IMG/VR virus record: IMGVR_UViG_3300002834_000024
Coordinates: 1 to 64,000 of that record
Strand: one strand, 5' to 3'
Length of the DNA: 64,000 nucleotides
Origin: a virus
Taxonomy: Duplodnaviria > Heunggongvirae > Uroviricota > Caudoviricetes
Under the pieces are notes generated by a model. It made no database searches. It was given only the letters and a program-made list of their open reading frames with translations, and was not told where the DNA came from. Position 1 is the stretch's first letter, and the number at the start of each line of letters is the position of its first letter. Made by a program: the position numbers and the translations under genes. Shown here piece by piece: positions 515 through 56,849 of this stretch.

Positions 515-644
515 TTATTTTTATTTGTTTATAAATCATTTTATCTGATACAAAAATACAGATAAAATTAGATAAGATAAAGTTTCTGGATGTTAAAATA
601 TTTTTTTTTTGTATTTATCATATATTGAAATATCATTTTATTAT

Positions 645-3600: not shown

Positions 3601-4019
3601 TACAAAGTGGTGTTTCAGAAGCACAAACTATGGATGCTAAAACTGATTATGTTAGCGATATGATTAAAACCCCACAGGGAAAAATAATGACAGATCCAAA
3701 TGATGTTATTATGGCTGTTAAACCTGGTGGTTCACTTTCAACTTTCTTTTCAAATAGTGTTTTACCAAATCCATCTGTTGGTGGTGGAGGATCGGGTGGT
3801 AACATTCAAATACCCCCAATAACAATTAACATATCAGGTTCACTAAGATTAGATGGTGCAAGTGAAACAATAAATCTTAATTCACTGGCAACCAACCGAC
3901 AATTTGTTGGGGCAATAACACAAGCTGTTGCTGATGGTATCAATAGAAATATGAACAGTGGAAGAATGAATAACAGTCAAGGACAATCATTTGGAAATTT
4001 CAATCGTGGAATGTTTTAA
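645..4019 (+). CDS. tail tape-measure-like giant protein (Gly-rich, coiled-coil N-terminus)
   Basis: 1136-aa ORF (track start 609; the more likely start is ATG 645, downstream of the TATTTAT motif at 612-618). N-terminal coiled-coil-like region, long Gly/Ala-rich hydrophobic segments (GGAAVAAGPIGSLALGG..., GAGVGGGLGAWGGAAAGAAIGSVVPGIGTAIGGVLGAIVGG) and amphipathic FGxIG repeats typical of tape-measure/ejection proteins. Immediately followed by a lysozyme gene. Confidence 0.45.
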   Translation: MTFDELLDKLTPEIELLIDQSRIQNEILVDLNAATTELLEKYKESDGLIEQITLLKDKLVETTQSLTDLNTPITSFSDALKQGKTDMDDSMSKLTSMTKSTTQNFGKFIGVAVAGTNKFKELATAAGKAGTAQDDAAKSLKKVGDASDNLKGRLDSNPGGTGGTGSGRPGSSGAAKGGKLQKIGQIAIDVVKGGWEQMTKLEEAFRPLNRQMGLSAENQVKFMGAMNKVAIDTTRKFGIAAKDLGEIQGKLFAETGRIQVMSAKQAEKVAGIAKVMGNQAGAQFVADMDKIGVSTDKAAKSWSEIRSIAGKAGVDMVKATSLVQSNIQKAQSYAFKDGVNSLAQMATKSLQMRMNMEQVFKFSEANRSVEGAVTQAAQTQVLGGAFSSFANPLENLYNSLYDQEASQDRLLGLGSDVMTFDKKSGTMKYKSAADQLRAEAFAKSSGLDIGELQSGWTRAGIGQQIDKELGTQFGVGLDKDQRDLAKSQASWNEDMKAWTVSVREKDSEGNYTYKDKELDQLTSQDLASIQADDSQNIDEIARTTMTIKDKLVAILDAAKTAFGGWVFKNLGPFLADMVEKIGGFFGGLSTGMKALVGGAAVAAGPIGSLALGGVKKLGKNALGAFGKVAKLAKVDKVAGLGRGTIMKNAGKNMLKLGKGSGIAAGLISAGVEGFDQWQAGNFKKSSGNQGKAIGSTAGAGVGGGLGAWGGAAAGAAIGSVVPGIGTAIGGVLGAIVGGLAGSKFGKNIGNAIGKYFDEGGGKAIKEASKKVWGAVSSTASNVWGAMKEKGGQIGSAVGKIWDNLSVKGKQLGGGFSALFKGDFKGAATNFTLLTKNVIGDVVNISKKFGEIGKEFGGWISDAFGKITSKEWWGEKLSNIWESITGFFGPIGDFFKEKFGAIGDWFTEKFGAIGDWFTTAFSNITSAEWWGERISNIKDAIIGKFTSIVDWVSENLSPSAIFNKAKNAVVGVANKVIGKGKEILSDVQSGVSEAQTMDAKTDYVSDMIKTPQGKIMTDPNDVIMAVKPGGSLSTFFSNSVLPNPSVGGGGSGGNIQIPPITINISGSLRLDGASETINLNSLATNRQFVGAITQAVADGINRNMNSGRMNNSQGQSFGNFNRGMF
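3336..3394 (+). repeat. perfect 26-nt direct repeat with 33-nt period (encodes KFGAIGDWFTE x2)
   Basis: tttggtgcaattggtgattggttcac occurs at 3336-3361 and 3369-3394. Confidence 0.9.
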
Positions 4020-5424: not shown

Positions 5425-6618
5425 TTAAGACATCATCAGGAATTGTTTTCTCATATCAATAAGAATATCATTAAAGAAGTCAATATCAACTTGATCTGGT
5501 AATGAACAGGTATTGATATTTTGTTCAATATAAGATTTCTTTTCTTCAGCAATCTTCATTATTTTGTCATAATCCCATTCACCTTTTTTTACGGATAAGA
5601 TGAAATCTCTGTCAATATCAGTTCTATCAATGAGGAAACCTTTACCATTAACAAGTTCTTCACCCATTGTTAAAAGCCGAATACAATGTGAAATGTTTTT
5701 GACATCATAATTTCGTTGGCTTTCAATATTGATTTTAAATCTTTCAGGATTTCTTTTTTTCTTCCAGTCTTGGTAATTTTTATAATCAACACAAAATTTT
5801 GAGTATCCTGATTTGTTATATGTCATATAACAAATTGGTAAAATCTCTTTTTCAACAGAGGATAATCTCACTTCATTACTATCATCACCAACAATACCAC
5901 GATAATTAGTTTCATTGATTGTATTAATAACTATGTTTAATGGTTCTAAATTTAAGAAAGAACATGCCATTCGATAAGAATTATTAATTAATTTTAATAA
6001 AATATATTCTTCTTCATCTGTGTTAATTTCAAAAAACTTTTCATTGTAATGTTTTTTGAAATCATAATATAAACCATAAACATCGTGCATATGTGGAATA
6101 TTTACCAACCCACAGTATTCTTGATATAAACTATTTTGTTTAAGATAATCTTTAATGGGTATTGAACCCTGTTCTTTGAATGTATAACAAAAGTCAAGAA
6201 CATCTTTCTTTTCTTCAATTGGATTAACAATTGCTTTATTTAACCCACGTGCCTTTTGAATTTGAGAATGGGCATATTGGGTTAATATCTTTGCTAATTC
6301 TTTTGTCAAAAATTTATTTCCATTTTCAAAAATAGGGGTTAAAATTTTGTGAGGCTTGGTTAACATTTTATCCTTCGGAACAAAAACACCCTCGATCATA
6401 TTTGGATTTCCTTTAATAAGGAGTTCAACCCATCTACCAAGTTCGTAAAACACAACATCATTACCATCAACATTCATTTGTTCTTGATAATTTTGTCTTA
6501 ATCCAAGAATATCATTGATATTTTGGACAAAAACACCAGATTTATCAAGATCACTATTTTCTGTTGCTAATCCATACAGTTGTGAACCACGAATATATTC
6601 ATAAATTATATTTTGCAT
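5425..6618 (-). CDS. Pol-beta superfamily nucleotidyltransferase (RlaP/PF10127-like predicted NTase)
   Basis: N-terminal motif IRGSQLYGLATENSDLDKSGVFV is the hG[GS]x(9-13)Dh[DE]h nucleotidyltransferase signature. The size (397 aa) and following helical region resemble the RNA-repair-associated NTase family. Family assignment is from memory of the motif style, not a search. Confidence 0.5.
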   Translation of the reverse strand: MQNIIYEYIRGSQLYGLATENSDLDKSGVFVQNINDILGLRQNYQEQMNVDGNDVVFYELGRWVELLIKGNPNMIEGVFVPKDKMLTKPHKILTPIFENGNKFLTKELAKILTQYAHSQIQKARGLNKAIVNPIEEKKDVLDFCYTFKEQGSIPIKDYLKQNSLYQEYCGLVNIPHMHDVYGLYYDFKKHYNEKFFEINTDEEEYILLKLINNSYRMACSFLNLEPLNIVINTINETNYRGIVGDDSNEVRLSSVEKEILPICYMTYNKSGYSKFCVDYKNYQDWKKKRNPERFKINIESQRNYDVKNISHCIRLLTMGEELVNGKGFLIDRTDIDRDFILSVKKGEWDYDKIMKIAEEKKSYIEQNINTCSLPDQVDIDFFNDILIDMRKQFLMMS

Positions 6619-13527: not shown

Positions 13528-14019
13528 ATGTCAGACTTGCTTATAAAAATGCCATTAGTATACGAACCATTAAGGAAAAACCGTTTTCTATTCAGATTTC
13601 CTAGTGATTTGGGGGTACAAGAATGGTGGGTAGCGACTGGTTCAAGACCTGTCATTAATCAAACCGAAACAGAAATTCCATTTTTAAATACATCAACATG
13701 GGTTGTTGGTAGATATATTTGGGATGCAACACAATTAGTTATGAGGGACCCAATTGGTCCATCAGCATCACAAGCTATGATGGAATGGGTACGTTTACAT
13801 TCGGAATCTGTTACTGGTCGTCAAGGTTACGCTGCTGGTTACAAACGAAACGTTGAGTTAGAAATGCTTGATCCAACAGGTGTTGTTGTGTCAAAATGGA
13901 TTCTTGTTAACACAATGCTTTCTCAACAAGCATCATTTGGAGATTTGGATTATAACAGTTCAGACCTTGCAACAATTACAGTAAATTTACGTTTTGATTA
14001 TGCTGTACTTGCATATTAA
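13528..14019 (+). CDS. tail tube protein (T4 gp19-like)
   Basis: 163 aa. N-terminal KNRFLFRFPSDLG resembles the gp19 NLFQVEI start and C-terminal ITVNLRFDYAVL resembles the gp19 FEVTLALDYW end. Size matches gp19 (163 aa). Confidence 0.55.
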   Translation: MSDLLIKMPLVYEPLRKNRFLFRFPSDLGVQEWWVATGSRPVINQTETEIPFLNTSTWVVGRYIWDATQLVMRDPIGPSASQAMMEWVRLHSESVTGRQGYAAGYKRNVELEMLDPTGVVVSKWILVNTMLSQQASFGDLDYNSSDLATITVNLRFDYAVLAY

Positions 14020-14526: not shown

Positions 14527-14557
14527 GTTTTTATTAAACTTAAAAAAATATTAAAAA

Positions 14558-14590
14558 AACATGTAGTTTCAATATTACATGTTTTTTTTT
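14558..14590. terminator. bidirectional rho-independent terminator
   Basis: AACATGTA gtttcaatat TACATGTT (8-bp stem) is followed by T9 on the plus strand and preceded by A7, so it is T-rich on both strands. Lies between convergent genes 14059-14526 (+) and 14589-15203 (-). Confidence 0.6.
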
Positions 14591-19814: not shown

Positions 19815-20606
19815 TTATTTAATTAATTTTTCTTCTTTTAAAAATTTTGTAACCTTTTCTCTTAATGCTTCACTTTCAAGATTATTATAGCACCATTTTA
19901 GGTAAGGTAAGTCAATTTGTTTTACTTCTTGAAATGTTTTATCTCTGTATTTACCAAACCCTAATGTCATATCTTCTGTTTTAGGTGTGGTTTTTTGTAT
20001 TTCTTCTTGTGTAATCTCAATGCTGATAAATTTTTTAGATGCAAGATAATCACATACATGTAATAATTTATCAGGTTCAGTTGTTGGATATTGAACTGGT
20101 ACTGTATCTTTTTCACCCCACTCTCCCATATGTGTTTCGATAGGCATGATTAAATATTTATGTATATCATTTTCAGAATCCAAAAAATAATTATCAGTAT
20201 CAGGAAGAATATTAGAAATAATACAGTTTCTAATACATTTAATTACAAATGCAACAGCATATTCAGCATGATTTTTAACAGTATGCGCTGTTTTATTATC
20301 ACCCTTTTTAATCATATCATGTGACATGGCTGCTATTAATAATAAATCTTTTTGATTATCCGTAAATTCCCACATTTTAAGATTATATAAAGTTATCATT
20401 AGTTTTGCAACCATTTTGGTATGTCTAACTAAACCGCCATCCCCAAGACTTATTGCTGGATGATATTTTCCACTTGTTGATGCTGGTATTTCAAAAAAAT
20501 ATTGGGGGACATTTTCTAATATATTTTCTGCTAATAACTTGTATTGCGGATTTTTAATAAAAGACAATTCTTCTTTAAAAACATCTAATCTTTCTTGTTT
20601 ATTCAT
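19815..20606 (-). CDS. HD-domain phosphohydrolase
   Basis: Motifs GKYHPAISLGDGGLVRHTKMVAKL and AAMSHDMIKKGD give the H...HD...D metal-binding pattern of HD hydrolases. Confidence 0.6.
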   Translation of the reverse strand: MNKQERLDVFKEELSFIKNPQYKLLAENILENVPQYFFEIPASTSGKYHPAISLGDGGLVRHTKMVAKLMITLYNLKMWEFTDNQKDLLLIAAMSHDMIKKGDNKTAHTVKNHAEYAVAFVIKCIRNCIISNILPDTDNYFLDSENDIHKYLIMPIETHMGEWGEKDTVPVQYPTTEPDKLLHVCDYLASKKFISIEITQEEIQKTTPKTEDMTLGFGKYRDKTFQEVKQIDLPYLKWCYNNLESEALREKVTKFLKEEKLIK

Positions 20607-20705
20607 GTATAATCTGTTATTTTATTCTATCTAAAAATACATAAAAAAAATATAACCTACAACTTTACATTGTAGGTTATATTCAAAATGATTGAAAGAA
20701 TTATT

Positions 20706-22091
20706 CTATTCTTCTGTATCAGCATTAACTTCTTCAATAGATTCAATGTCCGCTTCGCCATTGTCTAATTCAATAGTTTCCATCAAGAAATGTGATTTGG
20801 TTTTAAGTTTCAAGGCTGGTGCTCCAGTTGAATCATTCCGAATAACAATTCCTTCATGTGGTACATCATTAAAACAGTCTGGGGAATTAACTTCCATATA
20901 AAACCGATTTTTATCTTTTGAAAGTTTATCAACAAAATTTGTGTGCCAGTGTTCTTCGATTGAAAGTTCGGGATATACATCTTTTGCTTTACCATAATAC
21001 AATTCCTTTACAGGTCTTATATTTCTTTCTTTACACCAGTTTTGAACTTGTTTTGCACTAAATTCAAAAACAATACCATCTTGATTTGTATAAGTTATCC
21101 GATACACATAGATTTCAAATTCACCTGATTTACATTTATAGTCATGGTTTTTTTGAATATATTTATCACTACCAGGTAAAAAACCACATATTTCTGCATA
21201 TATAGTCATACCCTTTTCCAAAAATGGTTTTAAACGTTCACCAGCTGCTGTCCAAACATCTACACTATAAAAACCAGATCCAACATCTTTGTTGATATAC
21301 CGATTTTTGATGACACCTCTTGACGAGTAAAGCACATCATATTCATTTGCAACTATTCTTGCACCAAAAAATTGTAATAACATCTCTGGCCATTTCAAAT
21401 TTCTATTTACTAAAACATCACTTACAATTAAACTTGTACCATGATATTTAGTTGTAATAGAAACAATATCATCTGGATCAATTTTGAACATATTATCAGC
21501 AAGTCTTGCGGTATCATAATGGAATGAAAATTGATTTTCGATCAATTTGTCAAACCGTTTCAATCTGTTGTTTCGTCTAACATTTTTTGACGTTCCAAGA
21601 TTTGGTTGTCTTGTTTGATGTATAACATACTTTTTGGAAAACAATTGATCATTGACGGTATCAAATGCAATATCAACATAATCAGCAATGTTTCTCAAAT
21701 CTAAATTTGGTTGCCATATTTTCAACCAATTAATTGGAAAGACGAATCCTGTTGATATAATTTTTTGCAGGTTTATTGCTTTTACACGACCTTTATTTTC
21801 AAAAAACCCAGTTTCATTTTTATCGTGAACTTTATTCATTGCAATATCTCTGAATTGGTTATTTTCTCTCAAAAATTCCATATTCAAAGTGCTTTCACAT
21901 GGACAATATACAACAATATCGCCTATTTCAATTGACCCTCTACCAACAATAATATCATTACCCAATATAGTAGTAATATCAAGTCGTGTCACCTTTGGAT
22001 CTGGGTGAGGTCTAACATTATCAATACGAATTATCTTTGTTAGATAGTTTTCGTTTGCTTTTTCACTTCTTGTAAATAATTTTGTATTCAT
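20706..22091 (-). CDS. ATP-dependent RNA ligase, DraRnl/Rnl5-like (N-terminal OB module plus nucleotidyltransferase)
   Basis: Covalent nucleotidyltransferase motifs are seen: motif I TTKYHGTS (the KxHG variant used by Rnl2/DraRnl ligases), motif IV HEGIVIR, and motif V ALKLKTK. An about 200-aa N-terminal extension precedes motif I, as in the DRB0094 family. Confidence 0.6.
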   Translation of the reverse strand: MNTKLFTRSEKANENYLTKIIRIDNVRPHPDPKVTRLDITTILGNDIIVGRGSIEIGDIVVYCPCESTLNMEFLRENNQFRDIAMNKVHDKNETGFFENKGRVKAINLQKIISTGFVFPINWLKIWQPNLDLRNIADYVDIAFDTVNDQLFSKKYVIHQTRQPNLGTSKNVRRNNRLKRFDKLIENQFSFHYDTARLADNMFKIDPDDIVSITTKYHGTSLIVSDVLVNRNLKWPEMLLQFFGARIVANEYDVLYSSRGVIKNRYINKDVGSGFYSVDVWTAAGERLKPFLEKGMTIYAEICGFLPGSDKYIQKNHDYKCKSGEFEIYVYRITYTNQDGIVFEFSAKQVQNWCKERNIRPVKELYYGKAKDVYPELSIEEHWHTNFVDKLSKDKNRFYMEVNSPDCFNDVPHEGIVIRNDSTGAPALKLKTKSHFLMETIELDNGEADIESIEEVNADTEE

Positions 22092-22096
22092 TGTTT

Positions 22097-23152
22097 TTAT
22101 TTTTTTAAAATTAGTGTATTAGTTGGATATGCAAATTCCAACTCATTAGCATTAAATGCTGATAAAATTTGTAAATTAACTTTTGACTGTATATCAAGAA
22201 TATTAACATTTTGTCTTATATGATATATCAATGTAATTTGAAGTGCAAAATCTGTATAATTATTAAAATACGCATGAATATCATGTTTAATTTCGGGTAT
22301 AAGATTGGGCAAATCTTTTAATATATTTAAAGCCAATTGCATTTTATCTGGTGTTGTATCATAAGTTAATCCCAATAAAAGTGTTATACGTCTTACGGGT
22401 TCACTTGTAATATTTTCAATAACCGAATCAACAACTTTGGAACAAGATATGGTTACTATACGTTTATTTAGTGTACGAATACGCACACTACGAATCCCAA
22501 TATCTTCAACAATACCATCAATACCATCAATTAAAACTCTATCACCAACTCTAAATGGTCTGTCAGTAAATAATACCACACCAGCAAAGATGTTTTTAAT
22601 TGTATCTTGTGATGCCAGTGCAAGTGCAACACCACCGATACCAAGACCAGTAAGTAATGTTGTAATATTAATGCCAATATATTTTAATGTTATTACAATC
22701 CCTACACACCAAACAAAAATGTTTACTGTTTTTTGTACTGTATGAACAAGTGAATAATTAAATTTTTTATTTTTATTATCAATAGAGTTATTCATGTATT
22801 CTTTAATAACCCCATCAAATACTCTTGCAAACAACCATGTGAGATTGATAATGAATAATATTTTATATGTATTATCAATATACAGACTGGTTTCGGGAGT
22901 AAAAATAAAAATTTTTAATGCTTTCCAAATTCCAAAAATAATAATACCATAAACTATAGGATTTTGAGATTTTTCAATTATGACATTATCATATGTCGTT
23001 TTTGTTTTACTTGCAATTTTAACAAAAACATTTCTGAAAATCCATTGAATACTTCTTTTAAGTAAAATAACTATGATTATAATACCTAATGAAATTAACC
23101 ATTGGGTTAATGAAGTATCGTATAGGAATGTGTTATTAAAAAAATCAAACAT
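22097..23152 (-). CDS. mechanosensitive ion channel, MscS family
   Basis: Multiple N-terminal TM helices, then the canonical MscS core GIGGVALALASQDTIKNIFAGVVLFTDRPFRVGDRVLIDGIDGIVEDIGIRSVRIRTLNKRIVTI. Confidence 0.8.
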   Translation of the reverse strand: MFDFFNNTFLYDTSLTQWLISLGIIIIVILLKRSIQWIFRNVFVKIASKTKTTYDNVIIEKSQNPIVYGIIIFGIWKALKIFIFTPETSLYIDNTYKILFIINLTWLFARVFDGVIKEYMNNSIDNKNKKFNYSLVHTVQKTVNIFVWCVGIVITLKYIGINITTLLTGLGIGGVALALASQDTIKNIFAGVVLFTDRPFRVGDRVLIDGIDGIVEDIGIRSVRIRTLNKRIVTISCSKVVDSVIENITSEPVRRITLLLGLTYDTTPDKMQLALNILKDLPNLIPEIKHDIHAYFNNYTDFALQITLIYHIRQNVNILDIQSKVNLQILSAFNANELEFAYPTNTLILKK

Positions 23153-23239
23153 AATTTATGTAAGTTTAAACTGATTATGCAAATTGGTCAAGTAGTTCAT
23201 ACCTGACCAAGATGCACATACAGTATTTAGTATTTTTGT

Positions 23240-24079
23240 TTATCTATTACGTCCAACTTGTAATACATTTTCGGCATTTGTACCAATCACTAAATTAATA
23301 TTCGCATTATCTTTTACCCTAATAATTTCGATTAATTCCTTATTATTATCTAATTGTTTTAATGCGATAAACTCATTTGGTGTTAATCCCAAATCCCTCA
23401 TATATGCCTTATCAGCCTTTGCTCTTGCGGATTCAGCCTTTTCTCTGGCTATTTCAGCTGCTTCTCGTTTATCCTGGGTTTCTTTCGCTTGGATTTGTGC
23501 TGCTGTTCTATCCATTTCTTCAATTACCGCATCATTTGGTCTTGCTCTACCTGTTATAACATCTATTAGTTTTATTGGTAATCCCTTTTCTTTGATTATT
23601 TTTTCAAGCGTAATTCGTAATTCACCATTAATTTCTTCATACACTGTTCTATCTGATGTTAATCTAAACATAGGATATTTCGATATTTGCGCTCTTACCA
23701 TTTCCCTATAAAGTGCTTGAATGTTATTTTCAAACCATTTTAAACCAAAATTTTTATACAATATAGGTGATTTACCACTTTCGATTTGTAATGATAATGT
23801 AACTTGTAAATTAACAGGTGTGTTATTTTGGGTAATCACATCATTAAATTCCTCGTCATATCTTAACGGTATCATATCAAAAATTTCGGTATCTGTGGAC
23901 CATGCTGGAAAATACCTATCACCACTACCTGGTTTATCGTGAACACCAGCGCCACCAAATAACCACGGCTTTCCAATAAACACAACCTCCTGTGTTTCAT
24001 CAACTGAAATGGAATAACATCCACTTAACATAAACACTGCAACAAACATTGTTGCCAACAAACTAAAAATCTTTCTCAT
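23240..24079 (-). CDS. SPFH/band-7 domain lipoprotein
   Basis: Signal peptide with lipobox MRKIFSLLATMFVAVFMLSGC. The C-terminal region resembles prohibitin/band-7 domains and is followed by a charged coiled-coil EEMDRTAAQIQAKETQDKREAAEIAREKAESARAKADKA. Confidence 0.55.
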   Translation of the reverse strand: MRKIFSLLATMFVAVFMLSGCYSISVDETQEVVFIGKPWLFGGAGVHDKPGSGDRYFPAWSTDTEIFDMIPLRYDEEFNDVITQNNTPVNLQVTLSLQIESGKSPILYKNFGLKWFENNIQALYREMVRAQISKYPMFRLTSDRTVYEEINGELRITLEKIIKEKGLPIKLIDVITGRARPNDAVIEEMDRTAAQIQAKETQDKREAAEIAREKAESARAKADKAYMRDLGLTPNEFIALKQLDNNKELIEIIRVKDNANINLVIGTNAENVLQVGRNR

Positions 24080-24092
24080 GTCTTTACAATTT

Positions 24093-24734
24093 TTAAATTA
24101 AACTTAAATTTATAATATTTTCTTCTTTTTGCTTATCTAATATTTGATTAACTTCCACTAATGAAATTGGTCTGTAATCATTACGTTCAACTGAAACATT
24201 ATATGAATTTATAGTTCCGATCTCATTGTTTTTTTCGTGGATATGACCATGTAAATGATAAACCCCATGATGTTTTCCCTCCCAGTTATATTGAGGAAAA
24301 TGGTCTAATATGTATCGCCTTTTTCCACATCTAACTTCCAAACGTTCTTTTACTGATAACAATTTTGTTACAATACTGGTTATTTGATTCGGAGTATAAT
24401 GTTTTTCAACTTTTTCAACACATTTTCTATCATCATGATTCCCAATAACAAGAATTTGAATACCATTTAGTTTATCGAGAAGTTTTATCCATTGATCAGA
24501 ACTTCCAGACCAACAAAAATCCCCTAAATTGAAAACATAATCGTTAGGTTGAACAACACTATTCCATTTTTCAATCAGTTTATCGGACATTTCTTGCATG
24601 TCAGAAAATGGTCTGTTACATAATCTGATTATATTTTTATGAAAAAAATGATGATCAGATGTAAACCAAACATTTTGTTCATCCTTTACATCAGTAAATT
24701 CGATGTATCCATATTTTGAAGATATTTTAATCAT
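24093..24734 (-). CDS. calcineurin-like metallophosphoesterase
   Basis: Metal-binding motifs in order: WFTSDHHFFH, FNLGDFC, VIGNHDD, HLHGHIHE. Confidence 0.75.
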   Translation of the reverse strand: MIKISSKYGYIEFTDVKDEQNVWFTSDHHFFHKNIIRLCNRPFSDMQEMSDKLIEKWNSVVQPNDYVFNLGDFCWSGSSDQWIKLLDKLNGIQILVIGNHDDRKCVEKVEKHYTPNQITSIVTKLLSVKERLEVRCGKRRYILDHFPQYNWEGKHHGVYHLHGHIHEKNNEIGTINSYNVSVERNDYRPISLVEVNQILDKQKEENIINLSLI

Positions 24735-24993
24735 ACCATTTTAATTTTTGACCACAATTTGGACAACGTTCTAAATTATATGCTCTTGTATAATATCCAT
24801 CATCACATGGTTCATAATCATGAAAATCTTCCAGACAAGTTGGACATTCGCTAGGACACCAATCACTTATCATTGGTTTAACTGGTGTGTTGAGTAATTC
24901 AAGTGCATCTCTAATGCCTGTTTCATAAAGGGGATAATTTCCCATGTTATTTTTCTCAACTAATTTTTCAACTATTCTATCTATAATTTCCAT
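24727..24993 (-). CDS. small Cys-rich (zinc-ribbon) protein
   Basis: 88 aa with CPSECPTC and CPNCGQK pairs. Overlaps the downstream gene by 8 nt. Confidence 0.45.
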   Translation of the reverse strand: MEIIDRIVEKLVEKNNMGNYPLYETGIRDALELLNTPVKPMISDWCPSECPTCLEDFHDYEPCDDGYYTRAYNLERCPNCGQKLKWYD

Positions 24994-25010
24994 TTTCTTT
25001 TAATTTGATA

Positions 25011-25058
25011 CAAAAGTACAAATAAAAATTGGATAAGGGAAATTACTGGATGTTAAAA
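25011..25058 (-). promoter_or_regulatory. conserved bipartite minus-strand promoter element (TTTTAACATCCAG-N27-TAcTTTTG)
   Basis: Plus strand shows CAAAAGTA at 25011-25018 and CTGGATGTTAAAA at 25046-25058. About 20 nt upstream of the ATG of 24727-24993. The stop codon of the upstream gene abuts the 13-mer. Confidence 0.6.
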
Positions 25059-26168
25059 TTATTTTGGCCCAGTATTGGTTGTTGTCCTGTTTGGGGAATA
25101 AGATTGTGTTTGATATGATGGTTGAACATAGTTTTCTTTTAAAACCAATTTATCACCAACATAATTTGCAACAACAAAAAAATCATTGTTAGGGAATAGT
25201 TTAAGATTTTCCTGATATGTTATACCTAATACTTTACAATCATTTCTAGATAAATCTATATAATTTTTATCAATGAATTTTACAACCCAACCATCATATT
25301 CAATATTCCTAATTGTATTTATTTTATAAATGATTTCTATTTCTTTTTTTCTACTTTGTAAATCATTGAAATCATTAATAAAATATTTTAAATCAGATGT
25401 TGTATTATTAGATAATTTAGATAATTCATTATATGAAAAATTAGATTTATGCCAACTCTGAACTTCAGGTACTAATACTACTTTTTGTGTACTATTTGGT
25501 AACTTTTTAATTTTTGCATGAAAAAAATGTGGGGGACTAATTTTTTCAACTTCAAGCATATAAAAGTTATCAAATTTTTCTGTTTCAACTGTTTCAGATG
25601 TAATGTAATCAAATAAATTAGATTTATATTCTGGACTATCAATCATAAATACCATAGAACCAACTTGTAATTCTTGGTTTTCAACTAAAGGGGTTACTTT
25701 TGATAGGAAACAAACTTTAGTCTCCCCAACAGAACGTGCAACACATGATTCAGTAGAATAAAATCTATTGTGTTTCCAACTTGGAGTAGTTAAAGCATAA
25801 GTAATATCATATTTAATAACATTACCGTCCCCATTATCATTATAATTGGATATTAAAGAGTTGAGATTTTTTACTGGTTCTAATTGAGGCTTGTATCTGG
25901 ATGGTAAACGCAAAACATTACCATCCCCATTAAATATTAGGGAAAATGGCTTATTGATTTCAAATATGCAAAGCACATTTTTATCTCCATTTATAATAAT
26001 ACGTGGAGATGCTTTGTCATAGTATACAGCAATTTTATTTCTATCACCATTTACAACTAAATTATCTGCCTTATCACTTGTAAATACTAATTCTTGTTTA
26101 TCACCATTTACCGTTTTACTCATTTGATTACTTTTTATTATTTTCCTCTTGTTGTTGCCACGCTTCAA
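25059..26168 (-). CDS. repeat protein with five NGD-x-N beta-strand-like repeats (possible beta-helix/polymer-forming fold)
   Basis: N-terminal region has five repeats spaced about 15 aa apart: VNGDKQELVF, VNGDRNKIAVYY, INGDKNVLCIF, FNGDGNVLRL, DNGDGNVIKY. An alternative start at an internal Met (26123) would remove the 41-nt overlap with the upstream gene. Confidence 0.4.
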   Translation of the reverse strand: MKRGNNKRKIIKSNQMSKTVNGDKQELVFTSDKADNLVVNGDRNKIAVYYDKASPRIIINGDKNVLCIFEINKPFSLIFNGDGNVLRLPSRYKPQLEPVKNLNSLISNYNDNGDGNVIKYDITYALTTPSWKHNRFYSTESCVARSVGETKVCFLSKVTPLVENQELQVGSMVFMIDSPEYKSNLFDYITSETVETEKFDNFYMLEVEKISPPHFFHAKIKKLPNSTQKVVLVPEVQSWHKSNFSYNELSKLSNNTTSDLKYFINDFNDLQSRKKEIEIIYKINTIRNIEYDGWVVKFIDKNYIDLSRNDCKVLGITYQENLKLFPNNDFFVVANYVGDKLVLKENYVQPSYQTQSYSPNRTTTNTGPK

Positions 26169-27282
26169 GTTCAGAATTTGATAGTGTTGGTATCAAAGAA
26201 ATTTTATTATTTAATGTTAATAAACTTTTTTCAAGATCCCTTCTTTTTGTTATTGCATCATTATTAATTTGTTTTGATTCAATTAACATATGAATAATAT
26301 CATTTGTGCTTGATTCAAGTGCTTCCAATGCAACTACTGAATTTTGATTTTCAGTATTAATTTCTTTCATTTGTATTCTAATATTTTTTGCATTTTTCTT
26401 GATTGTCTCATTAGTTGTTTTACTAAGTGCTTTATGACTTTCTAAAACTTTTTTCTGATTATATAATGCAAGAGAATTTGCGAGAGCATTTTTAAATATA
26501 GGAATAGTTATGGTTGAAATAGTATCCGAATTGTTCATTAATTTTACATTCCCATATTGAATGGCACGTTTTTCTGTTAAACCATTTTGTAATGTATATC
26601 TGGCTACTAACCAATCCGTAACTCTTTTATCAAAAATATTTATATATTCAGTTAAATTGTAAATTTCATGATCGTCATAATTATCTGGGTTTTGGTTCAT
26701 ATCATCTAATTTTGTTTGTAAAATTTCGAGTTGTAATTTTCCCCCAATAATCATAGTTTCCAATTCAGCAATGGAATCCTTATCATTATCATACATTGTT
26801 TGAAGCGTATTGTTATCACCAGCTAATTTTAATTTACCAGCAGCAATTTGGTTGGATATTTCGGTGACACTATTTGAAATAGTATCATATTTTTTAACAA
26901 TTTTATTTAATTTTTTGAAATATTTTCCAATTATTGGCGTTTTTGAAAATTTTACAAGAAATTTATTAGGTAAAGACTTAATTTCATCTGGATCAATTAA
27001 TTCCAATTGCATTTGTAACTCTGTTAATAGATTACCAATTTCACCAGCATTATCTATTTTACAGTGATTAAAAAAATTTGATGAGTTTGTGGAAATTTTT
27101 TGACCAACATCAGTCCCAAATTGAACAATATCCCCAATATTTTCTCCGTCAAATTGTTTTACTTTTTCAAGATATTTTGTTTTTTCTTCGTCCGATAAAA
27201 TAGATAAGTTAATGCTGTTATCTTTTGCAATAATCGCTAACATGTTCCCATCCTTTCTTTGATTTTCACCTGAATTTTTCAT
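26128..27282 (-). CDS. TelA/KlaA-like (toxic-anion-resistance family) protein
   Basis: About 380 aa and largely helical. Architecture and segments such as DIVQFGTDVGQKIS...AGEIGNLLTELQMQLELIDP resemble TelA family proteins. Assignment is from recollection of the family, not a search. Confidence 0.4.
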   Translation of the reverse strand: MKNSGENQRKDGNMLAIIAKDNSINLSILSDEEKTKYLEKVKQFDGENIGDIVQFGTDVGQKISTNSSNFFNHCKIDNAGEIGNLLTELQMQLELIDPDEIKSLPNKFLVKFSKTPIIGKYFKKLNKIVKKYDTISNSVTEISNQIAAGKLKLAGDNNTLQTMYDNDKDSIAELETMIIGGKLQLEILQTKLDDMNQNPDNYDDHEIYNLTEYINIFDKRVTDWLVARYTLQNGLTEKRAIQYGNVKLMNNSDTISTITIPIFKNALANSLALYNQKKVLESHKALSKTTNETIKKNAKNIRIQMKEINTENQNSVVALEALESSTNDIIHMLIESKQINNDAITKRRDLEKSLLTLNNKISLIPTLSNSELEAWQQQEENNKK

Positions 27283-27312
27283 TTTTATTGTATTTTTAAA
27301 ATTTTAATAATC

Positions 27313-27699
27313 TCAATTGCAAAAATAACTACTTTTCAATTGATTTGAAAGATATTTGTTCTCAATATATTTTTTTATTATATCCCCATGACATGATAAA
27401 GGTTTACAAAAACAACCTAAATATACATTTTTACCATTAGTATATAGAGTATAGATTTCGTTAATCTTATTCTGTAACATTTGGTTTATTTCAATTTCCG
27501 AATGGAAATAATTTCGATATTTTTCAATAGAATCCTCTCTGTTTTCAACTATGAATTTGGCTAATGTATTTTTATCCTTTATACTTGTGAATGGATTTGA
27601 TAATACATTACCATATCTATCTCTACCTATATAAAAATAAGGTTCTCCACTTGGTGGAAACTCTTTTTTTATATTTATTACATATATTTCGCCACACAT
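27313..27699 (-). CDS. DUF4326-family protein
   Basis: The block FYIGRDRYGNVLSNPF matches the YIGR...NPF signature of DUF4326. Confidence 0.5.
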   Translation of the reverse strand: MCGEIYVINIKKEFPPSGEPYFYIGRDRYGNVLSNPFTSIKDKNTLAKFIVENREDSIEKYRNYFHSEIEINQMLQNKINEIYTLYTNGKNVYLGCFCKPLSCHGDIIKKYIENKYLSNQLKSSYFCN

Positions 27700-27884
27700 T
27701 ATGAATGTATTAATTTAAAATTATCACAAGCCAGATCACGAAGTCTTACATTGTAATATTCTTTACCACTTAAAATTTGATTTGAACATTCCAAACATTT
27801 GTGTCTTACTCGTTTGCCGATTGTATATCTTTTTATATGCTGGCAATCTTTACATCTTGCTGAATATAGTATTTCAATAATCAT
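27699..27884 (-). CDS. small C4 zinc-finger protein
   Basis: 61 aa with CKDCQH...CLECSNQ. Confidence 0.35.
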   Translation of the reverse strand: MIIEILYSARCKDCQHIKRYTIGKRVRHKCLECSNQILSGKEYYNVRLRDLACDNFKLIHS

Positions 27885-28075
27885 TTATATATGGTGTATT
27901 TTCTTTTATAAAAATGTAATTTTTCCATTGCATACTTTTGGGATACTTCTTTACTTCTACCCTCATAAATGGCTTGTTTAAAATGGTTCATGTAAATTCT
28001 GATGTATATTCTACAACATCCCCACAAATAACCAATAGCATATGCTATAATTCCAACTAAAATTAATTCTTTCAT
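27881..28075 (-). CDS. small membrane protein
   Basis: 64 aa. N-terminal hydrophobic helix LILVGIIAYAIGYLWG followed by a basic tail. Confidence 0.35.
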   Translation of the reverse strand: MKELILVGIIAYAIGYLWGCCRIYIRIYMNHFKQAIYEGRSKEVSQKYAMEKLHFYKRKYTIYK

Positions 28076-28093: not shown

Positions 28094-30037
28094 TTAATAA
28101 AATCCTTCTACAGAAACAACTCTACCACCATTTAAATGAACATTTATTCTATCTGATTTTAAATCAGCTGTAATGGGACAATTAATATCATCGTATTGAG
28201 TAACCCTAATGTCATTTGTTATTCCAAGATCATTGAATATATCATAACATTCGTCAATTGTCTTATTTAACATAATTTTTTCAAAATTTTTCACTCTTTT
28301 GTCTATTGTTTCAACAACAGCACTTTGTCTTGTTTGTTGTCCTATTGACTTATCTTCTGGTTCCATATTAACTTTTTTTAATGGTAATTTAAAAATTTTT
28401 GTTGGTTCTGATGGTTCATCATATTCAACTTCTTTGTTATATATTTGTTTTAAACAGCCACTTATAACCATTAAATGGGTTACAGTTTCATTTATATCCC
28501 TACTTCCTTGTGGAGGTGGAAAATCTTTTTCACAAATTGTTGAAAATTCATTTTTTGTTCTTGTATATATTACATAAAGTAAATTCTGTTCGGCTTCAAT
28601 TTCCCAATCTTTTTTTGCTAAACCACTTGGGACAAGAGATGGACATAACAGATATACATGTTCGTGTTCTAATCCTTTTGCTTTGTGTGCTGTAATTAAA
28701 CAAATACCATTTTCATCTTGTTTAGCTAAAAATATTTTTTTTATTCTTTGAATTAGTTCAAATGTATTGTTAATATCATTTGATAATGCTTTAATGGTGT
28801 TGATAATTTCCATTTGTTGTATGATACTTCTATCAGATGTTGCATCATATACATCCAATCCCCTTTTAACCATTAGCTTTTCTCTAGCTTCAAGTAAGTT
28901 TTTGTATAATATTGGAATTAACCCATCTTTTTTCATATCAAGTGAAATGTATGGGGTATTAATTCGTTCAATAATGTCAAGTAAATTACTTCCAATATCA
29001 ATTCCTTTAATATAACATTTGATATTACGTTGAATTAATTTCAAATACAACTCAACTAATGGGGCTGTATTTCTACAAATCACCATTGAGTTAGGTTTAA
29101 TGTCTTTTATTTTGGTATCAAATGTAATTTTACCATCTGGAGCATTTTCACGTAATTGAAATTGTGGAACAAATCTTTTTGCTAATGGTAAAACAACCTG
29201 TGGGCATCGGTAATTGATTGATAAATCTAATTTGCTTGTATTTGGTATCTTCAAGATTTTTTCAAATGCCTCATTGTCCGCCCCACTGAAGCACATGATT
29301 GCCTGTTTTCGATCACCAACAGCAACAAATCTACCATCTTTTTTGAGACAACGTTGAAATAATTGTTGCATTGCAATATTTTGGTCTTGACACTCATCTA
29401 AAAGTACCCAATCATATTTTAATGAATTTAAAATGAGATTAAAATAGTTGGGTAAACATATCATATCAGTGAAATCAACAAAATCAAGATTTTCTTTACC
29501 CCATTCAATCAAATGTTTAATTATTTTCACATGATCATTTGTAATCATGTATCCATATTTATCTGCAATTTTAGCAATATCATCAGATGTTTCACATAGA
29601 TAAACTCTACATATATCTATTAATGTAAGTATGGTATCTTTGAACTCATCCCTCTCACATGTTGAAGTAAATTCAATACCTTCACACAATTCACTAAAAT
29701 TTTTCTTGAAATATGTTCGATATTTGTATTCATCAACTTCAAGCCCTGGTATGACTGTTTGATATTTAAAGTGTGTCCGTAACATTAGATAACCAAGTGA
29801 ATGACTTGTCCTAATAGTTACATTACTTTGTTTGATTTTATCTTGTAATTCATTGACTGTTGATTTATTAAATGCAAGAAACATTATTCTCTTTTTTTCT
29901 GGAATAAACTTCAACGCATGTGTTATGGAAAATGATTTGCCGGAACCTGCGATTGCTTCAACAACCGCATTTCCCTTACCATTTGTTATCCAGTCAAACA
30001 ATTTTTCCTGATATGTACTATATTTTATTTCTGACAT
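28094..30037 (-). CDS. UvrD/PcrA-like superfamily 1 DNA helicase
   Basis: Walker A VVEAIAGSGKSFSITHAL, motif Ia TSHS, motif II VLLDECQDQN, and further UvrD-like blocks. 647 aa. Confidence 0.75.
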   Translation of the reverse strand: MSEIKYSTYQEKLFDWITNGKGNAVVEAIAGSGKSFSITHALKFIPEKKRIMFLAFNKSTVNELQDKIKQSNVTIRTSHSLGYLMLRTHFKYQTVIPGLEVDEYKYRTYFKKNFSELCEGIEFTSTCERDEFKDTILTLIDICRVYLCETSDDIAKIADKYGYMITNDHVKIIKHLIEWGKENLDFVDFTDMICLPNYFNLILNSLKYDWVLLDECQDQNIAMQQLFQRCLKKDGRFVAVGDRKQAIMCFSGADNEAFEKILKIPNTSKLDLSINYRCPQVVLPLAKRFVPQFQLRENAPDGKITFDTKIKDIKPNSMVICRNTAPLVELYLKLIQRNIKCYIKGIDIGSNLLDIIERINTPYISLDMKKDGLIPILYKNLLEAREKLMVKRGLDVYDATSDRSIIQQMEIINTIKALSNDINNTFELIQRIKKIFLAKQDENGICLITAHKAKGLEHEHVYLLCPSLVPSGLAKKDWEIEAEQNLLYVIYTRTKNEFSTICEKDFPPPQGSRDINETVTHLMVISGCLKQIYNKEVEYDEPSEPTKIFKLPLKKVNMEPEDKSIGQQTRQSAVVETIDKRVKNFEKIMLNKTIDECYDIFNDLGITNDIRVTQYDDINCPITADLKSDRINVHLNGGRVVSVEGFY

Positions 30038-30056: not shown

Positions 30057-30103
30057 CAAAGGTAATTATTTTTGTGGATAATTACCTTTACTGGATGTTA
30101 AAT
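30057..30103 (-). promoter_or_regulatory. conserved bipartite minus-strand promoter element (TTTAACATCCAG-N26-TAccTTTG) with internal 9-bp hairpin
   Basis: Plus strand shows CAAAGGTA at 30057-30064 and CTGGATGTTAAAT at 30091-30103. A hairpin GGTAATTAT ttttgtgg ATAATTACC (30061-30086) lies between the boxes. About 20 nt upstream of the UvrD-like helicase ATG. The stop codon of 30098-30601 lies inside the 13-mer. Confidence 0.6.
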
Positions 30104-36240: not shown

Positions 36241-38754
36241 ATGAAGAAGCAAGAACTGTTGTCCTTTTCAAAAGAGTTAAATAATATCGTAAAACTTGTT
36301 GATGATGAAATTATTAAACAATTTCCAACATATAATATAAGTATAGAATACATCATTTATGGTATTCTATGTTCTAATAAATCAATTGGTTATCAAACAT
36401 TGGAAGATTTAACATTGAGTAGTAACATTGAGATGATGCAAACGATGTTATCCTCTCTACTTAATACAAAATGTTTAGCCAATAATTGTCATATTATAAG
36501 TCCAAGAAAAAAGGTTGTATTCGATGATGAAACTTTAACCACATTTAACAAAGCTGATGAAGAAAGAAAATTATTAAAAGATGAGGAACTTACAAGTGAA
36601 CATGTTTTATTAAATATTTTGAAATCAGAACATGACATTAAAAAATCTTTTAATAACATTGGAATAACATATGATATTTTCAAAGGTAGAGTTATTACCA
36701 AACGAAATGAAGAAACTAATCCTGTTGAAGAAAAACCAATAGAACAACAACCAAAACCAGTTTTAATTGCACAACCAGGATGTCCTATGGTAATGGTTCC
36801 ACAATTACCTAAAAGAACCAAAAATGGGAATATTGAAAAACACACCATAAACTTAAATCTATTATACCAACAAAACAAATTAGATAAAGTTATTGGCAGG
36901 GAAAAAGAAGTTAATACAGTTATGAAGACATTATTAAAACGAAATAAAAATAATGTGATTTTAACTGGTAATAGTGGGTGTGGTATTACATCCATAGTTA
37001 ATTTATTGGTTGAAAAATTAGTCATTGGAAATTGTCCCACACCTTTAGTAAACAAAGAAGTTTTAAAACTTAATATTAATTCAATGATTGAGAGTAGTCA
37101 ATATAAGGGGATATTTGAACAACGGACAATTGATTTAATGAAAGAGATAAAAGAATATAAAGGTAAATACATTCTATTATTAGATGACATTCATGTTGAT
37201 TTGATGAAAGATAACAACAATGATGTATTAACATTTCTAAATACATTATTGACTGATGATGATATAAAAGTAATCGTAACCATACCTTTACAGTCATATA
37301 AAAAAAATATTGAAAAATATGGATTTATTGAAAAAAGATTAAATAAGATTATTGTTGATAACATGAATATGGATGATACTATCAAAGTATTGCAAACAAA
37401 TAAACATTATTATGAAGATTTTCATAATGTCTTTTTTTCAGATGATTTAATCGAACAAATTGTAAAATTATGTGAAAGATATATTTCAGATAAAGCATTG
37501 CCATCATCAGCAATTGAAATAATTGACATACTTGGTAGTAATTCTCGTTTAAAAAATGAAAGTGTAAATGAAATTATTCAAGTAAAAAATGAGATTAGTG
37601 TTATGCAAAACCGAATGGATGCTGCAATCCAAGCAGAACAATATGAGGTAGCTGATACATGTAAATTAAATCTAAATAAACTTAATACAAAATTAAAAAA
37701 TTTAACGGAAAGTAATATTAATAAAAAAGAAATTAGTGAAATAACTGAAAATGATTTACTTTCTATTGTTAGTGAATTATCTAAAATACCATTAACAACA
37801 CTTTCAACCAATGAGTTAAAACATATTGGAAAATTATCTGACATTATTAAAGAAAATGTTATTGGACAAGATGAAGCAGTAGATAAGGTTGTGAAAACTA
37901 TTCAGAAAAATAGACTTAATTTGAAAAGTAATGTTAAAAAACCATCAGTGTTCTTTTTTCTTGGCAATTCTGGGGTGGGTAAAACACTATTGGCAAAACA
38001 ATTAAGTAAAACTGTGTATGGTGATGAAAAAAATATGCTAAGAATAGATTGTTCGGAATTATCTGAAAGTCATAGTATTAGTAAATTACTTGGAAGTCCA
38101 GCGGGGTATATCAGTCATGGAAATTCAACTATATTAGATAAAGTAAAACATAACCCATATACAGTTGTACTTATTGATGAGATTGAAAAGGCACATGATA
38201 ACATTTACAATTTATTTCTTCAATTGTTTGATGATGGTAGAATAACAGATTCAACTGGTGTTACTATTGATTTTAGTAATACGATAATAATAATGACTTC
38301 TAATGTTGGAACAAAAATTTCAAATGATTATAAACCTGTTGGATTTGGTACTATTGATGATGATACATTATTAAAAAATCGGGAGGATATTATTAAAAAA
38401 CAGATGAATAAAAAGTTTACACCTGAATTTTTAAATAGAATTAACTCTATTATCTATTTCAAACCATTAACAGAAAAAAATATTAAAGATATTATTGAAT
38501 TAAATTTGAATACATTTAATTCCATTTTAAATGATAAAAATGAAAAATACAGTATAAAATGGACAGAAGAAGTTATTGAATTTATTTTTTCTAAAATAAG
38601 CGAAGATGATAAAAAATTAGGGGCAAGACCAGTTCTTCGGTTAATCGAAACTCACATAGAAGAAAAAATCACCGAATTATTAATTGAAAATTCATATTCT
38701 GATAACTATATATTTTCCATAAGTATTATTGATGATGAAACAAATATTATTTGA
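36241..38754 (+). CDS. ClpC/ClpA-like AAA+ unfoldase with degenerate first ATPase domain
   Basis: Two Clp_N-like repeats at the N-terminus. D1 Walker A is GNSGCGITS (Lys replaced by Ile) and Walker B is ILLLDDIH (DE to DD). UVR-like motif QAEQYEVADTCKLNLNKL. D2 is canonical: FLGNSGVGKTLLAKQL, VVLIDEIEKAH, and sensor region GRITDSTGVTIDFSNTIIIMTSNVG. Confidence 0.8.
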   Translation: MKKQELLSFSKELNNIVKLVDDEIIKQFPTYNISIEYIIYGILCSNKSIGYQTLEDLTLSSNIEMMQTMLSSLLNTKCLANNCHIISPRKKVVFDDETLTTFNKADEERKLLKDEELTSEHVLLNILKSEHDIKKSFNNIGITYDIFKGRVITKRNEETNPVEEKPIEQQPKPVLIAQPGCPMVMVPQLPKRTKNGNIEKHTINLNLLYQQNKLDKVIGREKEVNTVMKTLLKRNKNNVILTGNSGCGITSIVNLLVEKLVIGNCPTPLVNKEVLKLNINSMIESSQYKGIFEQRTIDLMKEIKEYKGKYILLLDDIHVDLMKDNNNDVLTFLNTLLTDDDIKVIVTIPLQSYKKNIEKYGFIEKRLNKIIVDNMNMDDTIKVLQTNKHYYEDFHNVFFSDDLIEQIVKLCERYISDKALPSSAIEIIDILGSNSRLKNESVNEIIQVKNEISVMQNRMDAAIQAEQYEVADTCKLNLNKLNTKLKNLTESNINKKEISEITENDLLSIVSELSKIPLTTLSTNELKHIGKLSDIIKENVIGQDEAVDKVVKTIQKNRLNLKSNVKKPSVFFFLGNSGVGKTLLAKQLSKTVYGDEKNMLRIDCSELSESHSISKLLGSPAGYISHGNSTILDKVKHNPYTVVLIDEIEKAHDNIYNLFLQLFDDGRITDSTGVTIDFSNTIIIMTSNVGTKISNDYKPVGFGTIDDDTLLKNREDIIKKQMNKKFTPEFLNRINSIIYFKPLTEKNIKDIIELNLNTFNSILNDKNEKYSIKWTEEVIEFIFSKISEDDKKLGARPVLRLIETHIEEKITELLIENSYSDNYIFSISIIDDETNII

Positions 38755-56138: not shown

Positions 56139-56849
56139 ATGTGGTGTTTAAAAAACTTTTTTGAAAAGAAAATAGCAATAAAAGAACCAGAAATAAGTGT
56201 ACCTATATCTGAAATCGTACCTGAATTAGAGAATGATATTGAAGATATTTATGAGAAAGTATATAATAATATGTTGACAGTAATATTAGATAATGGTCAT
56301 GGCGAAAATACACCAGGAAAACGTTCACCTGTATGGGATGATGGTTCACAATTATTTGAATATGAATTTAATCGGGATATTGTGTTAAGAATATATCAAC
56401 AATTATTTGAATTAAATATTCCATGTATAATATTAGTTCCAGAATTAAATGATATATCATTAACCGAAAGATGTAAAAGGGTTAATAAAATATATGATGA
56501 AACAGAAAAAAAATGTTTTTTATTTTCAATTCATGCCAATGCTGGTGGTGGAACTGGTTGGGAATGTCATATATATTCCGAAAAAACCAAATCAAAAGAT
56601 TATGCAACAATTTTGGCACAGGAGGCAAAAAATGAATTTGGAACTGAATGGAAAGTTAGACAACCACTTCCTAATCAATTATATTGGGTAAGTAATTTTC
56701 AAATAATACGTGATAGTAAATGTCCAGCTGTACTAACAGAAAACTTTTTTATGGATAAAGAAGAAGATTGCCGTTTTATAATGAGTGAAGAAGGTAGAGA
56801 TAGGATTGCTAAAATACATGTAGAAACAATTAAAAAAATAATATCGTAA
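56139..56849 (+). CDS. N-acetylmuramoyl-L-alanine amidase (Amidase_3-like) or related peptidoglycan hydrolase
   Basis: VILDNGHGENTPGKRSP (amidase Zn-ligand region) and FLFSIHANAGGG (SIHADA-type motif). Confidence 0.6.
   Translation: MWCLKNFFEKKIAIKEPEISVPISEIVPELENDIEDIYEKVYNNMLTVILDNGHGENTPGKRSPVWDDGSQLFEYEFNRDIVLRIYQQLFELNIPCIILVPELNDISLTERCKRVNKIYDETEKKCFLFSIHANAGGGTGWECHIYSEKTKSKDYATILAQEAKNEFGTEWKVRQPLPNQLYWVSNFQIIRDSKCPAVLTENFFMDKEEDCRFIMSEEGRDRIAKIHVETIKKIIS

Follow-up and report, generated by a model that had tools for sequence, protein, structure and literature searches.

Mechanosensitive channels are the emergency valves of bacteria. Among proteins of solved structure, the best match to the channel reported here is YnaI of Escherichia coli (5Y4O, 6URT, 9H95), a protein of 343 aa with two extra N-terminal helices and with beta and alpha-beta domains. 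Among viruses, a survey of transport proteins from 2018 recorded mechanosensitive channels in giant eukaryotic viruses only, MscS-like in Aureococcus anophagefferens virus and MscL-like in Tetraselmis virus and CroV (PMC6163359), and MscL-type genes on viral contigs are mentioned in a recent virome study (PMC13288924). SPFH/band-7 proteins are represented by the HflK/C and prohibitin cages (7VHQ, 7WI3, 9CZ2, 8RRH, 9O9Z), and their role in phages has been called 'poorly understood' (PMC7760394). Here we describe a gene for an MscS-family channel (22097..23152, minus strand) and a neighbouring gene for an SPFH/band-7 lipoprotein (23240..24079, minus strand) in positions 1 to 64,000 of the Caudoviricetes record IMGVR_UViG_3300002834_000024, a stretch of 64,000 nucleotides referred to below as the window. 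Both open reading frames (ORFs) are present at exactly the minus-strand coordinates given for them in an earlier note on this DNA. We lean, on balance, towards reading them as two separate accessory membrane genes of a phage of ~347 kb, a host-derived channel and an SPFH scaffold that are adjacent by chance.

The identification of the channel as MscS made in the earlier note was borne out by a profile search, which kept the ORF in the family with three Pfam modules above their gathering cut-offs: MS_channel_1st (PF21088, 41.8 bits against 23.1), MS_channel_2nd (PF00924, 72.6 against 20.2) and MS_channel_3rd (PF21082, 30.2 against 21). Sequence matches in the PDB were to YnaI (E = 3e-23) and to E. 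coli MscS (E = 1e-20). The same note had spoken of an MscS core. Although the family stands, the ORF encodes more than a core: it is a whole protein of 351 aa, in which a YnaI-like membrane part of five hydrophobic helices is followed by beta and alpha-beta cytoplasmic domains, and homologues align with it from residue 1. The NCBIfam equivalogs for E. coli/Helicobacter MscS (NF047602, NF007662) gave 90.5 bits (cut-off 400) and 78 bits (cut-off 321), and since these scores are far under the cut-offs, the protein is a member of the MscS superfamily rather than an MscS orthologue.

Hydropathy placed two N-terminal segments, at residues 12-40 and 65-85, in addition to three core helices. An AlphaFold2 model computed with 28 homologues (predicted local distance difference test score, pLDDT, 78) contains helices at residues 15-49, 53-80, 86-125, 133-159 and 163-180. 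When this model was searched with Foldseek, YnaI was the top match (E = 4e-17) over ~345-350 columns, which is the full length, so that YnaI is the best PDB match by both sequence and fold. With two extra N-terminal helices before the transmembrane helices TM1-TM3 and this full-length structural match, the modelled channel belongs to the YnaI-like five-helix subclass. K/R residues are abundant in the loops 33-63 and 119-136, in keeping with an N-terminus on the outer side of the membrane and a C-terminus on the inner side. The pore motif GIGG-x-A-x-x-x-A-x-x-D is common to both proteins. However, their identity is ~23-28%, the gate is V175/L179 in the phage protein and L154/M158 in YnaI, and the present channel is phage-encoded.

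The pore-lining helix, TM3a/TM3b, covers residues 163-197 (ITTLLTGLGIGGVALALASQDTIKNIFAGVVLF; 22562..22666, minus strand) and is modelled as two helices (163-180 and 182-197) with a kink at residue 181. The pore was aligned with the sequence of E. coli MscS, in which L105, L109, G113 and G121 are at their expected positions. In this alignment V175 and L179 presumably correspond to the hydrophobic gate residues L105 and L109, and G191 to G121; Q182-D183 would take the place of Q112-G113, which in YnaI belongs to K161-D162, and the kink lies there. Every one of the 45 columns that are invariant in the family (28 members) is retained by the phage channel, and the columns of the GIGG motif and of A176, A178 and A180 are invariant. 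The hallmarks of MscS in this region are therefore present: a TM3 rich in Gly and Ala, a pair of hydrophobic residues at the gate, and a kink between TM3a and TM3b. The two phage copies of the channel known to us (see below) both leave a bacterial consensus of at least 85% at 8 positions, where all changes are conservative. As judged from its residues, the pore shows no sign of being disabled or constitutively open.

These observations bear on a possible offensive use, in which the channel would not protect the cell but leak or depolarise, so as to shut off the host, exclude superinfection or time lysis. Membrane-permeabilising proteins are common in phages, and the Asp at what we take to be the equivalent of E. 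coli G113, as in YnaI, can be counted for such a use, substitutions of G113 presumably altering MscS inactivation. However, the pore carries no gain-of-function sign, because its pore and gate residues match those of the Bacteroidales homologues and the phage-specific changes are conservative. Moreover, the gene sits among replication and RNA-repair genes, far from the endolysin gene (56139-56849, on the strand opposite to MscS), and it has no PADLOC or lysis-family match. We consider offensive use unlikely. A delay of lysis, which the earlier note had put forward, is likewise not favoured, the endolysin gene being 33 kb off on the other strand and the block around the channel consisting of replication and nucleic-acid genes.

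MscS channels had been called unusual in phages, and the collections searched agree. No PHROG family matches the channel, and tblastn against INPHARED returned weak matches in three of 50,697 records. The best of them (MT835758, 39% identity) has a high GC content and ORFs for Bacteroidales-type fimbrial lipoproteins, and was rejected because it looks like bacterial DNA in a virome. The other two are a 1.8-kb fragment recorded as an E. coli 'phage' and MT835819, an unannotated faecal-virome scaffold with 24.8% identity. A single-protein scan of IMG/VR for MscS gave no match. A motif scan of 2.9 million IMG/VR contigs, which used only two peptide motifs of this subfamily and may have missed other MscS subfamilies, gave one locus (L017); there MscS lies beside an integrase at the contig end, and this is probably host flank. 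MscS channels are thus very rare in phages, and the collections searched yielded no other convincing phage copy, MT835758 and L017 being the candidates examined. The giant-virus channels are likewise virus-borne homologues, but they are short, highly divergent (25-29% identity to any cellular protein) and of unclear origin (PMC6163359), whereas the phage channel is full-length and has a clear donor lineage.

Among 1,319 homologues of the channel, one other is phage-borne. This protein (P0002, 90% identity) lies on a 3-kb contig from another sample, variant L011, which has 86.7% nucleotide identity to the window and the same gene order of Band_7, MscS and RNA ligase. The identical channel protein occurs on four contigs, and one of these, a 3.8-kb ENA contig, shows the gene order of the window. 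A contig of 347,076 bp is on record with identical MscS and SPFH proteins, which makes this a jumbo phage. The next relatives (52-61% identity) are in Bacteroidales chromosomal contigs, where the neighbours include rpsP, def, ruvX, ffh, serS, leuA/leucine-biosynthesis genes and genes for cargo sorted by the type IX secretion system. In a neighbour-joining tree the phage pair is sister to the clade P0003-P0011, with P0012 outside, and is nested in Bacteroidota. The chromosomal proteins of that clade, from metagenome-assembled genomes labelled Prevotellaceae or Bacteroidales, share 58-61% full-length identity, the domains and the invariant columns with the phage channel, but their genes stand in a housekeeping context at 34-42% GC, and the phage copy stands in a phage operon at 26% GC. 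A scan of genome contigs gave, among the matches listed, channel relatives of 35-46% identity and did not refine the donor species.

The GC content of the channel gene is 26.4% (14.5% at third codon positions), compared with 34-42% for the bacterial homologues and 29.7% for the window. Against L011, the ratio of nonsynonymous to synonymous substitution rates (dN/dS) of the channel is 0.127 at a dS of 0.48 (351 codons), values that point to an old capture and to a gene maintained by selection; for the flanking SPFH and RNA ligase genes the ratio is 0.035 and 0.18, respectively. These sequence comparisons indicate that the channel was captured from a Bacteroidales chromosome, drifted to the base composition of the phage and is under purifying selection. 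Nesting in a cellular clade, composition drift, purifying selection and phage genes on both flanks together mark a host-derived auxiliary gene. The host of the phage is probably a member of the Bacteroidales, in agreement with the likeness of its TelA-family protein to that of Prevotella Lak megaphages.

A rival explanation is that the MscS gene is bacterial DNA misjoined to phage sequence, or else a passenger that arrived recently and has no function in the phage. The closest relatives of the channel are all bacterial, and two other apparent 'viral' MscS matches looked like bacterial or host-flank DNA, as such an explanation would have it. However, phage-family genes lie on both flanks at spacers of 5 bp and 88 bp, and the same arrangement is found in contigs from separate samples. 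Moreover, the channel gene has an intact reading frame, a dN/dS of 0.13 at a dS of 0.48, and a GC content under that of the phage and far under that of its bacterial homologues. A misjoin or neutral passenger is thereby largely refuted, and we regard it as barely credible.

The second gene encodes a protein of 279 aa, which the earlier note had rightly described as a lipobox-bearing SPFH protein. It matches Pfam Band_7 (PF01145) at 56.2 bits against a cut-off of 23.6 (5.9e-15) and phrog_200, 'lipoprotein', at 1.1e-21. Its N-terminus reads MRKIFSLLATMFVAVFMLSG followed by C, with a basic n-region, a hydrophobic core and an L-S-G-C lipobox; the successive parts are MRK, IFSLLATMFVAVFM, LSG and C21. 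Read from the sequence, this is a signal peptide II with the lipobox L18-S19-G20-C21 (24017..24079, minus strand). Cys21 is invariant in 29 of 29 homologues, and a lipobox-like pattern, [LMF][STCAH][GSA]C, is conserved. The protein has the signal peptide II of a bacterial lipoprotein and is predicted to be lipidated, and as a lipoprotein it would have its SPFH domain in the periplasm.

Behind the lipid anchor come SPFH1/2, a coiled-coil helix of 48 residues, a second helix and a disordered tail. The AlphaFold2 model (pLDDT 81) places the two helices at residues 183-230 and 234-255 and has low confidence in the C-terminal 22 residues. A sequence search of the PDB with the protein returned no match, so a fold search was needed; with Foldseek the model matched prohibitin, HflK/C, stomatin and erlin over its full length (E = 3e-13 to 1e-10), with a probability of 1.00, flotillin included. 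Apart from the low confidence in its C-terminal 22 residues, the monomer model contains all elements of a cage subunit, and cage assembly is predicted from this subunit fold. SPFH1/2, the long wall helix and the second helix are those of the HflK/C and prohibitin cages, whose non-cytoplasmic orientation is also the one predicted here. Unlike HflK/C, the phage protein has a lipid anchor in place of a TM helix, is encoded by a single gene rather than as a hetero-pair, and has no FtsH-like partner gene in the window. It is not an HflK orthologue, scoring 24.9 bits with the HflK equivalog TIGR01933 against a cut-off of 159.4, and no ORF neighbouring its gene matched NfeD, which sets the locus apart from an SPFH-NfeD operon. 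A candidate FtsH partner, the 'ATP-dependent protease' at 36241-38754 and the only AAA+ protein nearby, was rejected, being ClpB/ClpC-like and without an M41 peptidase domain.

The SPFH protein has relatives in phages of Xanthomonas, Stenotrophomonas, Pseudomonas and Tunturiibacter that are in culture. Metagenomes hold 273 occurrences in total, among them contigs from the gut and elsewhere that reach 409 kb. The phrog_200 lipoproteins of Xanthomonas phage X1, of the Stenotrophomonas phages DLP_3, DLP_5 and Siara and of Pseudomonas phage PaBG, together with those on gut jumbo-phage contigs of 364-409 kb, equal it in length and share 28-54% identity with it. They also have the invariant lipobox Cys and the C-terminal coiled coil seen here, but none of them has an MscS neighbour. 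Around two of the metagenomic homologues, L015 (95 kb) and L016 (364 kb), gene calls are sparse, with gaps of 0.5-1.5 kb; identical SPFH proteins are recorded, too, on contigs reaching 384 and 409 kb. Stop-codon recoding in related gut jumbo phages would fit these sparse calls. In the window, by comparison, the standard code gives clean reading frames.

The earlier note proposed that the two genes act together on host membrane tension. MscS was found in none of the 83 metagenomic loci with an SPFH homologue (tblastn and a profile hidden Markov model of the channel; 1.04 Mb, 51 loci of at least 10 kb). In the reverse direction, the phage SPFH profile matched at none of 87 bacterial MscS loci (0.70 Mb), this being a profile of the phage family that possibly misses very distant band-7 proteins, and no Band_7 neighbour was seen in the five bacterial MscS contexts inspected. 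Across the 83 SPFH loci no gene of the window recurs as a conserved neighbour. Adjacency of SPFH and MscS is limited to this phage and L011, and a conserved two-gene module is not indicated.

The spacer between the genes is 88 bp long and contains an extended RNA hairpin (23170..23224, minus strand) with a minimum free energy of -27 kcal/mol (z = -5.8, 200 shuffles). The hairpin is kept in L011 with one compensatory change of A-U to G-C. It has no counterpart elsewhere in the window, and a clean U-run does not follow it. Rfam gave no match for the hairpin or for the window as a whole. This hairpin may act in termination or attenuation, or in RNA processing (RNase) or stability. On the other side of the channel, the RNA ligase gene begins 5 bp past the MscS stop codon, in the same order as in L011, and is probably co-transcribed with it. 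An intrinsic-terminator-like hairpin (20648..20684, minus strand), with a stem of 14-16 bp and then a T-run, closes this MscS-RNA ligase unit. The locus is most simply read as a channel gene that came in with the RNA ligase unit past a boundary element, or at least shares the expression of that unit, whereas SPFH belongs to the upstream unit. With no co-occurrence at 83 and 87 loci, adjacency in one lineage and a hairpin between the genes, joint action is not favoured.

A single functional module would nevertheless have analogies. An SPFH cage could give order or stiffness to the patch of membrane in which the channel sits, and could tune its gating or shield it from proteolysis. In each of the two phage variants known to carry MscS the genes are same-strand neighbours, the SPFH model has every element of a cage-forming subunit, and a stomatin cage bound to the aquaporin-1 channel (9zd2) is among its fold matches. 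The stomatin-family proteins MEC-2 and STOML3 regulate the mechanosensitive channels MEC-4 and Piezo in animals. Set against this are the absence of co-occurrence (0/83 SPFH loci, 0/87 MscS loci) and the fact that the two phage copies, being 87% identical, represent one evolutionary event. Moreover, the hairpin between the genes is stable and conserved, and it is to the RNA ligase gene that MscS is coupled. Most of MscS is cytoplasmic, but the SPFH domain would lie in the periplasm, perhaps anchored in the outer membrane, and a literature search found no paper on SPFH-MscS pairing in bacteria. We judge a module of this kind improbable. A bolder version, a mechanosensory unit in which a periplasmic SPFH cage would define a patch, the captured MscS would read its tension and the phage would set host turgor, we hold to be very unlikely. 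If true, such a unit could accommodate cell swelling or time release during replication of a 347-kb genome, and would be a bacterial-virus counterpart of the stomatin-regulated mechanosensitive channels of animals.

Returning to two separate genes, the likeliest function of the channel, which we infer from its sequence, is that of an osmotic safety valve for the infected cell. Made in that cell, the channel would insert in the inner membrane of the host, N-terminus out and C-terminus in, and is predicted to form a heptamer that opens on raised membrane tension. Opening would vent K+, glutamate and other small solutes, giving pressure relief independent of host gene expression and preventing premature bursting. 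A jumbo phage, which would take long to replicate its 347 kb of DNA and does so in an osmotically variable gut, could profit from such a valve while the stress responses of the host are off and DNA and counter-ions are filling the cell. Early or middle expression is suggested because the gene is placed among replication and RNA-repair genes, 5 bp before RNA ligase, and its unit ends in a strong terminator. Survival of osmotic shock during DNA injection, another role raised in the earlier note, is mechanistically awkward, because the channel can be made only after its gene has entered the cell. The SPFH lipoprotein would be exported and lipid-anchored on the periplasmic side, where it may form a cage that organises a membrane patch or that shields or regulates a client, for example a protease.

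Several points weigh against this interpretation. YnaI-type channels protect E. coli weakly unless overexpressed, so that 'safety valve' may overstate the effect. As there are only two phage copies, the estimate of selection is one pairwise comparison. The host is deduced from the donor lineage and the similarity of TelA, and the timing of expression from gene neighbours only. Promoter scans were uninformative: sigma-70 promoter-like sites (94) were not above the shuffled expectation (82.5 ± 8.9), and the Bacteroidetes-type motif TTTG...TAnnTTTG was below it (6 observed, 9.3 expected). The SPFH protein is without an Asp at +2 and may go to either the inner or the outer membrane. Lastly, adjacency is present in both known copies of the locus, which leaves room for a functional link specific to this lineage.

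The window as a whole is unmistakably phage DNA. Its genes include those for a tape measure protein (609-4019), a tail tube (13528-14019) and a head maturation protease (60945-61655), together with the endolysin, ribonucleotide reductase, helicases and a single-stranded DNA-binding protein. No INPHARED record matched positions 20000-28000 by megablast, and a putative capsid gene (61721-62917) was without a match by tblastn; the phage has no close deposited relative. ARAGORN found no tRNA or tmRNA genes in these 64 kb of the jumbo-phage genome.

The channel and SPFH genes lie in a tightly packed array on the minus strand, from ~30100 to 20650. Read from its 5' end, the array consists of a UvrD-type helicase (28094-30037), two small ORFs, a DUF4326 protein (27313-27699), a TelA-family protein (26128-27282; Pfam TelA 1.2e-61, phrog_5890), a protein of ~354 aa (25059-26123), a zinc-ribbon-like protein of 88 aa (24727-24993), a metallophosphoesterase (24093-24734), SPFH, MscS, RNA ligase (20706-22091) and the terminator-like hairpin. 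The metallophosphoesterase, TelA and DUF4326 genes that the earlier note listed in the block are all present as it described. The ~354-aa protein has NGD-x-N motifs repeated across its N-terminal third, and the 88-aa protein is Cys-rich, its gene overlapping the start of the metallophosphoesterase gene by 8 bp; neither had a match in Pfam, PHROGs, NCBIfam or PADLOC. PADLOC likewise returned nothing for MscS, SPFH or TelA and, among the proteins of the block, one faint match, to the metallophosphoesterase.

The best phage relatives of the TelA-family protein are in Prevotella Lak megaphages (30% identity). TelA was also found in RaK2-like jumbo phages of Erwinia, Yersinia, Cronobacter and Serratia and in Listeria and Lactobacillus phages (70 records), and is a recurrent accessory gene of large phages. 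The metallophosphoesterase gene (Pfam Metallophos; phrog_547, 3.8e-49) is 13 bp upstream of the SPFH gene. Together with the RNA ligase (Pfam RNA_ligase and PHA02142 OB-fold; phrog_968, 4e-46), an RlaP 'RNA repair pathway' nucleotidyltransferase (5425-6618, minus strand) and a phrog_5889 protein with an ExoX-like C-terminal domain (19815-20606, minus strand), it suggests a toolkit for the healing and sealing of RNA (tRNA repair). Within this putative toolkit, the metallophosphoesterase and RNA ligase genes flank those for SPFH and MscS.

Elsewhere in the window, the protein of 837 aa encoded at 36241-38754 (plus strand) is a double-AAA+ unfoldase like ClpB/ClpA/ClpC (Clp_N, AAA_lid_9, AAA_2, ClpB_D2-small), without a peptidase domain and labelled 'ATP-dependent protease' in PHROGs. 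Directly upstream of the endolysin gene, 52991-56137 (plus strand) encodes a protein of 1048 aa whose N-terminal ~160-230 residues match many PHROGs (DarB-like antirestriction, virion structural, minor head protein, endolysin), and which may be a virion-associated lytic or ejected protein. Perfect inverted repeats of 12 bp and 13 bp occupy intergenic spacers at 30058-30089, upstream of the UvrD-helicase gene, and at 14553-14588, between convergent genes. They are probably further boundaries of transcription units.

Taken together, the channel adds to known families from an unusual carrier and does not represent a system of a new kind, and the adjacency of its gene to that of the SPFH lipoprotein is a caution that neighbours are not to be read as partners. 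The comparison also documents lipid-anchored SPFH cage subunits as a widespread family of large phages. An intact, selected channel with a traceable donor in a gut jumbo phage suggests that, for very large phages, the turgor of the host can be worth controlling.

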